Below are positions 1 through 2,365 of a stretch of DNA of 6,254 bases, piece after piece. The DNA is from a virus (taxonomy: Duplodnaviria; Heunggongvirae; Uroviricota; Caudoviricetes): IMG/VR virus record IMGVR_UViG_2623620503_000006; one strand, written 5' to 3'. How positions within the stretch are numbered: position 1 is the first letter of the stretch; every line of letters begins with the position of its first letter. The notes under the pieces are model-generated. The model searched no databases. It was not told where the DNA came from and saw nothing but the letters and a program-made list of their open reading frames with translations. A program made the position numbers and the translations under genes.

Positions 1-41
1 ATTTTTATGGTCCGTGGTTGTTCACTCATTCTGAATGCCAT
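1..41 (-). CDS. tfa: tail fibre assembly protein Tfa, 5' end only (gene continues past the left edge)
   Basis: The reverse complement of 1-41 reads ATG GCA TTC AGA ATG AGT GAA CAA CCA CGG ACC ATA AAA ([13 protein letters not shown]), which matches the lambda Tfa N-terminus as I recall it. Its ATG (41..39) overlaps the stf stop TAA (43..41) as TAATG, typical translational coupling. Only 13 codons are visible. Confidence 0.65.
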   Translation of the reverse strand, partial: MAFRMSEQPRTIK

Positions 42-2365
42 TATGCAAGCCTCACAATATAGTTAAATGCAATGTTTTTGACGGTGTTTTCCGCGTTACC
101 CGCAGCGTTAACGGTGATGGTGTGTCCGTGTGAACCAATACTGAAAGAATGGGCATGAGCACCGATAACAACCGGATGCTGGTGCGCACCAATACCAACT
201 GTATGCGCATGTGCACCGGCACTCACGGCTGTACCGGACAATGAGTGACTGTGGCTGCCCTGACTGTCCGTTTTCGATAAATAAGCAATACCCTGTGTGT
301 TGGTTCCTTTAACTGTGGATAAACTTCCTGTAATGGTTGCTGTTCCATACTGACTCCAGCCAGAACTGTTCATCCTTAAACCACTTGTGTGGGCATGAGC
401 ACCCGCGGCCCCTGTTGAACCGCTCAGACTGTGAGCATGAGCCCCCGTGTTATTCGTCGATTTGGTGCCGTAATCGAAACTGCCTGTTGTTTTCGTCCCG
501 TAATCAAACGACGATGTGGTTTTCGTCCCCAAATCCGTACCGGATGCACTGGCACTGTGGGTGTGCGACTTAATTCCATCCTGTTCCTGAGACAATACAG
601 CACGACCGCTGGCGGGTTTCCCCTTGATTGTCCAGCCTCGCATATCAGGAAGCACACCCGATGGATACGCGACAGCAAGTTTTGGGTAGGCTGATTTGTC
701 AAACGCCTGCCCCTGCATCAGGACGTAGCCAGACGGAACGATATCTGATGGCCACGGGATCGGCGCACCTGCCGGAAAGGCCGAATTCTCACCGGCCCCA
801 AGGTATTCAAGAACATCTGCAACGGAATTTTTTGCCAGAATATCCCTGCCAACCTGAGTCAGTTCAGTCAGGCTGGCGGCATCATTTTCCGCAAAATACG
901 GTAATTTATTTTTCGCCGTGGAAAGCCCTGCCAGCGCCGTCAGTGTCGCATTCTTCGGTTGTTTACCCGCAAGCGCGTTAGTCATGGTGGTAGCAAAATC
1001 TGGATCATTCCCGAGCGCTGCGGCCAGTTCATTCAGCGTATTCAGTGCGTCAGGTGACGCGTCGATAACATCTGCAATCGCGGCCAGTACAAAAGCGGTG
1101 TTCGCAATCTGGGTATTGTTTGTTCCCCTGAGCGCGGTTGGTGCTGTTGGCGTTCCGGTCAGTGCCGGACTGTCCAGTGGGGCTTTTCTGTTCGTTTCAT
1201 CCATTACCACCTTAACCGCCTTTGGCGTTGCAGCAAGCGTTTCAGACGTGCTGTTGGTTGCACTGCTGAGCTGCACTATCCCCTTTCTCGTTGTGTCCGC
1301 ATCCTCAAGCGCGACAGCTGAAGCTATATCTTCTGCACGTTTTGCCGAATTTTCTGCACGTATTGCCGCCGCTTCTGCCGCACTTTTGCTCTGCGATGCT
1401 GATACCGCACTTCCCGCAGCCTCTGTCGCCTTCGTGGATGCCGTTGACGCACTCCCCGCCGCCGCTGTTTTTGCGTCTGCCGCGGCAGAGGCGCTCCGTT
1501 CCGCTGCTGTTTCAGATGACCTGGCATTCGTCTCGGACGTTTTTGCCGCCCTGGCAGAATTTTCTGCCGCCGTTGCCGAGGAAGCTGCACGACCGGCACT
1601 TGATGATGCGTTCGTTTCTGATGATTTTGCTGCCTCTTTTGAGGCCACCGCATCTCGTGCTGAAGTGGCGGCCTCTGACGCTTTCGTGGCCGCGGTGGAG
1701 GCAGACGTGGCGGCTGATTGTTGTGACGCTGCAGCATTCGTTTCTGACGTTTTCGCCGCACCGGCACTGGTGGCCGCCGCGTTTTTTGAGGACTCTGCGG
1801 CTGCGGCACTTTTTTCCGCTTCAGTGGCCTTTGCTGATGCCGCTTCTGCGCCGGAGGACGCTTCCTGAGCTGACGATGCAGCCTGTCCGGCGGACGTGCT
1901 GGCGGCGCGTGCTGAGTCAGTTGCATCAGTCACAAGGGCCGCGACCTGAGCAGCTGATGCACTGGCATCGCCGGCTGATTTCTTCGCGTCTGCCGTACTC
2001 TGTGCCACCACGGACGCGTTACGCGCCACCTCTTCCACCATCAGTTCAAGACGACGCAGCACCTCCGGCCGGGCATCATCCTCCGTCATGGCACAGAGAA
2101 AATCATTCAGCGTCCCCGGTTGTGAATCTTCATACACGGTGATGGTCCCGGCGTGCGATGGTGGAAAACCGTCAACCTGCAGGATGACACTGTACTGACC
2201 GTACTCCACATCCATGCTGTAACGCCCGGCTTCATCCGGATTCTCTGAGCCCACCGTGTTCACCACCACCGTGGTGCTGTTACGTCTGGCTTTCAGCTGA
2301 ATGGTGCAGTTCTGTACCGGTTTTCCTGTGCCGTCTTTCAGGACTCCTGAAATCTTTACTGCCAT
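41..2365 (-). CDS. stf: side tail fibre protein Stf, full length (774 aa from the ATG)
   Basis: The track ORF 41..2371 opens with a GTG; the in-frame ATG at 2365 gives [26 protein letters not shown], the lambda Stf N-terminus as I recall it. It has a long Ala/Ser/Thr-rich fibrous shaft and a C-terminal domain with repeated His-x-His motifs (GAHAH, SHSHS, GAHQH, SHGH) like those of T4 gp37-type fibre tips. A weak GGGGTG Shine-Dalgarno sits just upstream. The frame is uninterrupted. Confidence 0.92.

Follow-up and report, generated by a model that had tools for sequence, protein, structure and literature searches.

An unbroken side tail fibre gene, probably the Ur-lambda allele, in a defective E. 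coli prophage

Results

A lambda-like fibre region joined to non-lambda DNA

The window, by which we mean the whole 6,254-nucleotide stretch analysed here, is an entire contig of E. coli MPEC4839, an ST10 strain from bovine mastitis. Its order is the end of an IS3 element, a cos-like site, nu1, a fusion of terminase A (residues 1-69) to J (residues 587-1132), lom, stf and the start of tfa; coordinates given below are on the minus strand unless stated otherwise. Only the last 122 nucleotides of IS3 (6133-6254) are present, as the contig ends inside the element, and the complete genome VG48B2 has a colinear IS3 end upstream of its nu1. The small terminase gene of nu1 type (4931-5479; PF07471, E = 2e-83) is a non-lambda allele. 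When the exact lambda cosN 12-mer was searched for in the window, it was not found; the site before nu1 is a diverged, cos-like one.

The match to lambda ends at position 4755. Positions 1-4755 are 99.9% identical to lambda 22014-17260, and the synteny J-lom-stf-tfa is kept. Near 4755, an in-frame deletion has fused residues 1-69 of a non-lambda terminase large subunit to residues 587-1132 of lambda J (3112-4959). The J part differs at four positions from both lambda PaPa (J02459) and the lambda prophage of E. coli K-12 CV601 (KT232076), T763A and S856N being among them. Next come an intact lom (2430-3050), identical to lambda Lom, and stf. The ATG of tfa, the fibre assembly chaperone gene, overlaps the stf stop (TAATG), and its first 13 codons (1-41), which encode the same residues as lambda Tfa, are followed by the contig end. 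Upstream of stf are two hairpins resembling intrinsic terminators, one in the gap between lom and stf (2382-2403; 9 bp, 7 of them GC, with U6), 17 nucleotides 5′ of the stf ATG, and the other at 3095-3080. Rfam gave no match in the window at gathering thresholds.

Lambdoid phages carry their head and tail genes in the interval from A to J, and in this element every gene lying between terminase A codon 69 and J codon 587 has been deleted. The element is a defective prophage, not lambda, and no tail can be built from the genes in the window.

The stf frame and its allele

stf was assigned to positions 41-2365 (774 codons and TAA) by its open reading frame, nucleotide identity and Pfam matches to phage_tail_N, Phage_fiber_2, Collar and Phage_fiber. 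From the ATG (2365-2363) to the TAA (43-41) there is no internal stop, and the chance of 774 codons without a stop is about 1.5e-13, as computed from base composition. The program-made list of reading frames extends this one to 776 residues, starting from a GTG two codons 5′ of the ATG; that GTG sits within GGGGTGA, a Shine-Dalgarno-like sequence.

The first-pass annotation had taken the frame to be unbroken and suggested alignment to orf-401, orf-314 and Ur-lambda stf. All 2325 of 2325 nucleotides match stf of KT232076, the two products differ at 0 amino acids, and the alignment reveals neither an internal frameshift nor a premature stop. A global alignment to PaPa J02459 shows differences in three places only, an extra C at codon 395 and one substitution each in codons 338 and 689. 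The extra C belongs to a CCCC run (1182-1185, codons 394-395) that is CCC in PaPa; without it, the PaPa frame is split into orf-401, which stops six codons later, and orf-314, which starts from Met461. The HK630 record likewise carries the annotation 'missing C relative to sequence of Ur-lambda'. Published work describes the frameshift of PaPa, the four trimeric side fibres and their binding to OmpC (PMC12617516, which for Ur-lambda Stf cites Hendrix and Duda 1992, consulted here through that citation). Nothing that we found contradicts the identification of stf.

Attachment domain and heptad shaft

The N-terminal tail-attachment (collar) domain spans residues 1-134 (1964-2365; PF08400, E = 9e-75). 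Over residues 1-94, it has the same sequence as the 'Tail fiber protein' chains in PDB 9e7m/9mgh, and gpStfN has been defined as residues 1-91 (PMC12617516).

The shaft that follows, residues 120-352 (1310-2008), is rich in Ala and Ser and holds about 33 heptads, as delimited by composition and autocorrelation. It had been called low-complexity at first pass, and the bias toward A, S and T is real, the three making up 66-72% of residues 151-350. The sequence is, however, a strict heptad repeat: peaks in its identity autocorrelation are confined to lags 7, 14, and so on to 56, with z = 5.7-7.6 at every multiple of 7. This matches the known proximal coiled coil, placed at residues 102-393 (PMC12617516).

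Long spurious reading frames over the shaft had also been expected, and three are in the program-made list: 316 residues at 918-1868 (plus strand), 283 residues at 1291-2142 (plus strand) and 200 residues at 1324-1926 (minus strand). The first of them contains the annotated orf206b of lambda. We rejected this opposite-strand frame as a real gene and attribute it to the shaft, whose GCN-rich sequence has few stops.

A tip of the T4 gp37 type

Residues 518-774 (44-814) form a receptor-binding module of the gp37 type, with collar, needle and tip, as recognized by phmmer, BLASTP and Pfam. These last 257 residues match the T4 gp37 tip (PDB 2XGF) at E = 1.2e-72 by phmmer and with 58% identity by BLASTP. 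The Pfam Collar match (PF07484, E = 8e-11) lies at residues 533-580, before the needle.

Eight HxH motifs are spread over positions 122-565, three on the descending arm (residues 601, 643 and 657) and five on the ascending arm (705, 719, 728, 737 and 746), and they hold 16 of the 17 histidines of Stf. Each of the strings GAHAH, SHSHS, GAHQH and SHGH that had been pointed out earlier is present, GAHAH four times. Together these cover seven of the eight motifs; KSHTHS at residue 601 had been overlooked. Shuffling the whole protein 20,000 times gave 0.35 ± 0.58 HxH motifs with a maximum of 4, and shuffling the C-terminal 257 residues gave 0.93 ± 0.91 with a maximum of 6.

In gp37, seven iron atoms are held by the HxH histidines (PMC6957217, PMC11705849). 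All seven of these motifs align with HxH motifs of Stf, which agrees with the earlier suggestion that they are of the metal-coordinating gp37 type. The eighth Stf motif falls in a 9-residue insertion, and this insertion and one of 10 residues account for the extra units of Stf relative to gp37. In a 40-sequence alignment, the histidine positions are invariant, except that one HxH is absent altogether from one class of homologues. Four tandem 9-residue units of the form x(G/V)IGxHxHx lie at residues 714-749 (119-226), where TRF reports a period of 27; this is one unit more than in gp37, which has a 9-residue gap facing VVIGAHAHS.

The sole poorly aligned stretch in the comparison with gp37 is residues 660-704 (254-388), between the third and fourth HxH motifs. 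It is the variable distal tip, presumed to be the OmpC-contacting head; the equivalent stretch of gp37 contains the receptor-contacting residues 933-959 (PMC6957217).

The C-terminal domain, whose structure the first-pass annotation proposed to predict, was modelled as a monomer of Stf 518-774 by AlphaFold2 with the 40-sequence alignment. A model was obtained at a mean pLDDT of 50.1 and a pTM of 0.23, and it was unusable, as expected for an obligate trimer that is intertwined and clamped by metal. Because the model is uninformative, the predicted needle of eight levels rests on the alignment instead.

In E. coli prophages, we also observed fusions of N-termini from terminase, Lom or a protease to Stf-type tips, one such fusion being on 480 contigs.

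Repeat units are matched in number between the two arms

A tandem peptide repeat had been noticed in the tip as two units, together with direct nucleotide repeats around 440-520. The peptide repeat is real and consists of three tandem 10-residue GTK units, residues 612-641 (443-532), of which gp37 has two. The nucleotide repeats are present and weak, with in-register identities of 20/30, 15/30 and 12/30: they are missing from the TRF output at score 30, and a repeat search at the GTK units found only an out-of-register pair of 12-mers and no conspicuous nucleotide repeat. Clearer DNA repeats stem from the HxH units, namely the TRF repeat with a period of 27 at 149-217 and the repeat families D1 and D2.

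Repeat copy number, which had been suggested for comparison across homologues, was counted in the 114 complete sequences among the best 120 of 2277 homologues, most of them enterobacterial and partly related by descent. In these 114, with 42 distinct tip sequences among them, GTK units and trailing 9-residue HxH spacings are always equal in number (2/2 in 85 and 3/3 in 29), and a 14-residue HxH spacing occurs on both arms or on neither, without exception. As read from these sequences, the equality of GTK and 9-residue HxH unit counts appears to be the one small new point of this analysis, all else being already known.

Discussion

We conclude that the stf gene in the window is very probably (about 93%) the intact wild-type Ur-lambda allele of the lambda side tail fibre gene, stranded in a defective prophage. 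Such an allele is already well known, and the finding is correct but ordinary.

The contig could be an artefact, either by contamination with lambda DNA or by mis-joining of a resident nu1-A to lambda J-stf, and an intact stf would then be uninformative about the strain. It is a draft contig of 6254 bp with repeats at both ends (IS3 and tfa), its lambda part is 99.9% lambda, and no record spans the A'::'J junction in 5426 complete E. coli genomes searched by megablast or, by exact search, in the contigs of GTDB representatives (one genome per species). On the other hand, the microhomology at the junction is just 3 nucleotides (ATC), much less than a k-mer mis-join would require, and the identical contig is recorded for two samples. 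The window DNA is not PaPa-type lambda, because the allele is of the Ur type and four J positions differ from both lambda records; as this DNA is moreover joined to non-lambda DNA, contamination was rejected. VG48B2 also has the same IS3-nu1 arrangement and the same stf-tfa with a different A::J deletion, in a decayed prophage next to potB. An artefact is very unlikely. That stf belongs to a still functional phage, which makes fibre-bearing tails with the missing genes elsewhere in the prophage, is scarcely credible. The intact open frames of stf, lom, nu1 and the receptor-binding C-terminus of J, and the cos-like site before nu1, would suit such a phage; against it, a single reading frame runs straight from A codon 69 into J codon 587, J lacks its N-terminal half, there is no room for the terminase ATPase/nuclease, portal, capsid, tail tube, tape measure and tip genes, and the VG48B2 relative, which stops at potB, has a deletion as well.

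For the protein itself, one could suppose that low-complexity sequence produced the HxH motifs and peptide repeats, which would then be incidental and have no structural role, given a compositional bias that reaches 72% A+S+T in the shaft. The probability of this is negligible: eight HxH motifs stand against 0.9 expected even from the composition of the C-terminal domain itself, each of them pairs in the alignment with a metal-binding HxH of crystallised gp37 or with a repeated copy of such a motif, their histidines are invariant in the 40-sequence alignment bar the motif missing in one homologue class, and the unit numbers on both arms co-vary with no exception.

With stf read as the Ur-lambda allele, homology and published work on the identical protein suggest how the fibre would be built. 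The N-terminal domain would form a collar on the lambda tail, followed by a coiled-coil shaft of about 230 residues in heptad repeats, a hinge and distal rod, and a tip of the T4 gp37 type. In the tip trimer, each chain would descend the needle, form the receptor-binding head and climb back. Each level of the needle would be clamped by one metal ion through six histidines, one HxH coming from each of the three chains. Stf would have eight levels where gp37 has seven, the extra level consisting of an additional GTK unit of 10 residues in the descending arm and an additional HxH unit of 9 residues in the ascending arm. Folding would need the downstream chaperone Tfa, and the published receptor is OmpC; for the identical protein, fibres on virions are known to speed adsorption via OmpC (PMC12617516). 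Sequence identity, homology, the alignment of motifs, the repeat counts and the deletion junction are direct results here; from homology and this published work we infer metal binding, trimer geometry and OmpC binding of the present Stf.

In MPEC4839, Q, pR' and the repressor lie outside the window, and expression of the fibre would need Q-antiterminated late transcription through the two terminator-like hairpins. With A codon 70 through J codon 586 gone from the prophage, and with IS3 lying upstream of nu1, the fibre would count only if such late read-through expressed it. A complete fibre had been thought possible given late transcription; the Stf protein could indeed be made, but no tail genes are here to carry it, and a different lambdoid phage would still have to take it up or acquire it by recombination.

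We also conceived that the remnant (cos-like site, nu1, A'::'J with its LamB-binding C-terminus, lom, stf and tfa) might be a maintained host-range cassette rather than debris. A lesser structural consequence in this reading is that the needle of gp37 and Stf would grow by whole rungs, each pairing one 10-residue GTK unit with one 9-residue HxH unit, so that the needle of lambda would hold eight metal ions. We consider this reading unlikely. If it were true, superinfecting or co-resident lambdoid phages could draw on the cassette by recombination or use Stf/Tfa in trans, and the recurrent in-frame deletions that spare the fibre tip and tfa in many E. coli prophages would be explained.

The practical value is small, namely that the contig can be annotated correctly as a defective prophage with an intact stf rather than as a lambda lysogen. 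A natural isolate confirms that the intact stf is the wild form and the PaPa frameshift the exception, and the identical allele, to the base, circulates beyond K-12 in an ST10 strain from bovine mastitis. The count rule, with equal numbers of GTK and 9-residue HxH units and paired 14-residue spacings, could guide the engineering of Stf/gp37 chimeras for host-range retargeting.

Comparison with known systems

The closest counterpart is Ur-lambda Stf (KT232076, ALA45720), which has the same 2325 nucleotides, the same 774-residue product and the same neighbours, with J and lom upstream and tfa overlapping the stop. Only the surroundings differ: here stf is part of the deleted prophage of a bovine ST10 isolate, whose left end is non-lambda nu1/A' and which carries an IS3. 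Lambda PaPa (J02459, NC_001416) has the same gene at 99.9% identity, in which the loss of one C from the CCCC run ends the frame after 401 codons and leaves the rest as orf-314, with two substitutions besides.

The likeness to T4 gp37 D10-D11 (2XGF) covers collar, needle and tip, with 58% identity over about 226 residues, seven HxH iron sites at the same positions and last 30 residues that are nearly identical. Both proteins need a downstream chaperone (gp38 or Tfa), and both are reported to bind OmpC. Stf exceeds gp37 by a single GTK unit of 10 residues and a single HxH unit of 9 residues, with eight predicted metal levels, and has a distal tip of different sequence that is 11 residues longer between the third and fourth HxH motifs. 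N-terminal of about residue 518, it is unrelated to gp37.

In the cryptic prophages of K-12, fibre and chaperone genes likewise survive without morphogenesis genes (stfR/tfaR of Rac and stfQ/tfaQ of Qin), and infecting lambda recombines with such fibre gene copies (PMC3945230). For stfR, identity is only about 87%, across about 67% of the gene; the copy here is lambda's own allele.

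An intact Ur-lambda stf allele

The stf reading frame, described as intact in the first-pass annotation, indeed runs on the minus strand from an ATG at 2365-2363 to a TAA at 43-41, through 774 codons with no stop. From base composition, a stop-free run as long as this has p ~1.5e-13. In the mechanical ORF list the frame opens two codons further upstream, at a GTG that lies inside the Shine-Dalgarno-like GGGGTGA preceding the ATG.

Reverse-complemented, window 1-4755 is 99.8-99.9% identical to lambda 17260-22014. When compared base by base with KT232076, a lambda prophage in K-12 CV601 whose annotation shows stf as one tail fibre gene, stf is identical at 2325/2325 positions. 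Against the laboratory strain PaPa (J02459), stf differs by an additional C in the C run at window 1182-1185 (codon 394-395), along with substitutions at codon 338 (window 1354) and codon 689 (window 300). In PaPa, where this C is absent, the frame ends as orf-401, and the rest is annotated as orf-314, whose first residue is Stf Met461. This C is what distinguishes Ur-lambda from the laboratory strain in published work (PMC12617516), and the HK630 record is likewise annotated 'missing C relative to sequence of Ur-lambda'. Because of the full identity to KT232076 and the match to this published difference, alignment to orf-401/orf-314 and Ur-lambda stf bears out the claim of a complete gene. 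With identity this complete, the gene belongs to the lambda Stf family on the strictest reading. Lambda-type stf is uncommon, with just 78 of the 5426 complete E. coli genomes holding at least 80% of the gene.

A defective prophage

The window is the whole contig JYHP01000106.1 (assembly GCA_000954045.1) of E. coli MPEC4839, which was isolated from acute bovine mastitis and belongs to phylogroup A, ST10 (PMC4966475). On the minus strand, the contig ends inside an IS3 element, whose last 122 nt occupy 6254-6133. A cos-like site at ~5625-5675 resembles lambda cos (...GGGGCGGCAGCGGCGCGGATTTTCGCTATTTATGAAAATTTTTCGGG...) with a diverged cohesive-end 12-mer, and exact lambda cosN is absent from the window. 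A non-lambda nu1 (5479-4931, PF07471) is followed by an A'::'J ORF (4959-3112, junction near 4755), in which the first 69 residues of a non-lambda large terminase are joined in frame to residues 587-1132 of lambda J, including its LamB-binding C-terminal domain. The fusion is a deletion product, and at the joint the parental sequences have only ATC in common, a microhomology of 3 nt. Between the fusion and stf lies an intact lom, identical to lambda lom, and stf is followed by the opening 13 codons of tfa, with the ATG of tfa overlapping the stop of stf. In this gene order all head and tail genes are missing, and MPEC4839 is not a lambda lysogen. The junction was found in 0/5426 complete E. 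coli genomes and in none of the GTDB representatives.

The sole differences from wild-type K-12 lambda in the 4755 nt are in J, at 3943, 3944, 3949 and 4224 (T763A, S856N). Incidentally, window 3180 (J residue 1111) encodes D here and in KT232076 and Y in PaPa J02459, a PaPa-specific difference.

Hairpins resembling intrinsic terminators follow J (3095-3080, minus strand, with a U tract) and lom (2403-2382, minus strand, 9 bp with a U6 tail). The end of the latter is 17 nt from the stf ATG, and its U tract abuts the stf ribosome-binding site. Given these hairpins, stf expression should depend on antiterminated late transcription, as had been assumed.

One complete genome among the 5426, VG48B2, has the IS3-nu1 arrangement in common with the window. 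Its decayed prophage (NZ_CP128584.1 15776-21988) adjoins potB and contains nu1, A(about 1-202)::J, an intact 774-aa stf and tfa. Its IS3-nu1 segment leads into an A::J deletion unlike the one here and a second deletion that took away the end of J and the beginning of lom; the same stf-tfa and then potB follow. The IS3 insertion point upstream of the cos-like site and nu1 is common to both (about 13865-15122 in VG48B2). The two elements point to a lineage of decaying prophages, in which the deletions were either independent or successive. In VG48B2 the IS3 sits between the lysis genes and nu1, and it could be polar on late transcription.

In many E. coli proteins, a Stf-type C-terminal tip is joined in frame to the product of an unrelated upstream gene. 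The upstream partners include terminase A (at several breakpoints), Lom and a ClpP-like protease, among others (database proteins P0004, P0022, P0026, P0028, P0030, P0083, P0085, P0063, P0016 and P0071), and one such fusion is on 480 contigs. Prophages therefore seem to decay repeatedly by large deletions that leave the fibre tip and tfa in place, with ascertainment favouring in-frame cases.

Attachment domain and heptad shaft

Pfam assigns aa 1-134 to the prophage tail fibre N-terminal domain (E=9e-75), aa 358-396 to a Phage_fiber_2 repeat and aa 533-580 to a Collar domain. The 'Tail fiber protein' chains of PDB 9e7m/9mgh have the same sequence as Stf residues 1-94; in the cryo-EM structure of Ur-lambda, gpStfN comprises residues 1-91, and the N-terminal domains make a dodecameric collar on the tail (PMC12617516).

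The shaft had been called low-complexity, but it is highly ordered. In aa 120-352 (window 1310-2008, minus strand), the only significant peaks of identity autocorrelation fall at multiples of 7 (z=5.7-7.6, lags 7 to 56), so that this Ala/Ser-rich region consists of ~33 strict heptads of the type AAxSAxx, agreeing with the proximal coiled coil published at residues 102-393 (PMC12617516). TRF reports a 21-nt period within the shaft DNA at 1330-1378. The long off-frame ORFs claimed over the shaft do exist (+ 918..1868, + 1291..2142 and - 1324..1926), because heptad coding is GCN-rich and stop-poor. The first of them includes lambda's annotated orf206b. The simplest view of the orf206b equivalent (window 1248-1868, plus strand), which lies opposite stf and wholly inside the stop-poor heptad region, is that it is a non-coding by-product.

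A gp37-type tip

The C-terminal region has eight HxH motifs, at aa 601, 643, 657, 705, 719, 728, 737 and 746 (window 122-565), which contain 16 of the 17 Stf histidines. The four HxH strings noted earlier were all found, accounting for seven of the eight. The tandem peptide repeat is also real, with three 10-residue GTK units at aa 612-641 (window 443-532), more than had been claimed. On the other hand, the direct nucleotide repeats placed around 440-520 are weak, with identities of 20/30, 15/30 and 12/30 between GTK-unit DNA, and neither TRF nor a repeat finder reported them in register. Clearer DNA repeats are 27-nt units coding x(G/V)IGxHxHx (TRF, 149-217).

Residues 518-774 match the T4 gp37 tip 2XGF (E=1.2e-72, 58% identity). 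Each of the seven gp37 HxH motifs, which hold the seven iron atoms of the gp37 needle (PMC6957217; PMC11705849), is aligned with a Stf HxH. Alignment is poor only at aa 660-704, between HxH 3 and HxH 4, whose counterpart in gp37 is the receptor-contacting tip, residues 933-959 (PMC6957217). By every sequence criterion, the Stf tip belongs to the gp37-type HxH tip family. A lambda-type variant frameshifted after the fourth HxH (P0005, ...SLSGTAVS, then out of frame) stands for 216 member sequences, so a broken form of this tip is also widespread in sequencing data.

A database search with aa 518-774 yielded 2277 proteins at E<=1e-10, and the architecture was counted in the best 120, of which 114 have a complete C-terminus. 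Among these, 85/114 are of the gp37 type, with two GTK units, the 14-residue spacing and ascending spacings of 14, 9, 9; 9/114 are of the lambda type, with three units, the 14-residue spacing and 14, 9, 9, 9; and 20/114 have three units and 9, 9, 9 without the 14-residue spacing. In 114/114 the number of GTK units equals that of trailing 9-residue HxH spacings, and in 114/114 the 14-residue spacing is in both arms or neither. Both rules are exception-free over 42 different tip sequences.

Alternative explanations

Contamination or mis-assembly, as a source of the contig, is unlikely. The joint has only 3 nt of microhomology, the contig is on record in two samples, the allele is of Ur type and J departs at four positions from each of the two lambda records compared, and VG48B2 has a related structure in a complete genome. 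The A'::'J fusion rules out a functional phage as the bearer of stf. Low complexity arising by chance is likewise excluded as the origin of the motifs and repeats: shuffling the C-terminal 257 residues gave 0.93 ± 0.91 HxH motifs (at most 6 in 20,000 trials) versus eight observed, the region aligns to a crystal structure, and the unit numbers co-vary.

Comparison with lambda and T4

The first-pass finding is correct and ordinary. The PaPa frameshift, four trimeric fibres and OmpC binding were already published (PMC12617516), as were gp37 homology, HxH iron sites and stf/tfa recombination between lambda and defective prophages (PMC12617516, PMC6957217, PMC3945230). The present analysis adds the setting in a defective prophage, a tally of eight HxH motifs and three GTK units, the heptad periodicity of the shaft and the rule relating unit numbers. 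From alignment and counts only, we infer that the needle would be built of rungs, each pairing one descending with one ascending unit; an AlphaFold2 monomer model of the tip was uninformative (pLDDT 50). Compared with gp37, Stf has an extra 10-residue GTK unit in the descending arm and an extra 9-residue unit, VVIGAHAHS, bearing the eighth HxH, in the ascending arm. The lambda needle would be longer than the T4 needle by one rung, and thus by one putative metal site.
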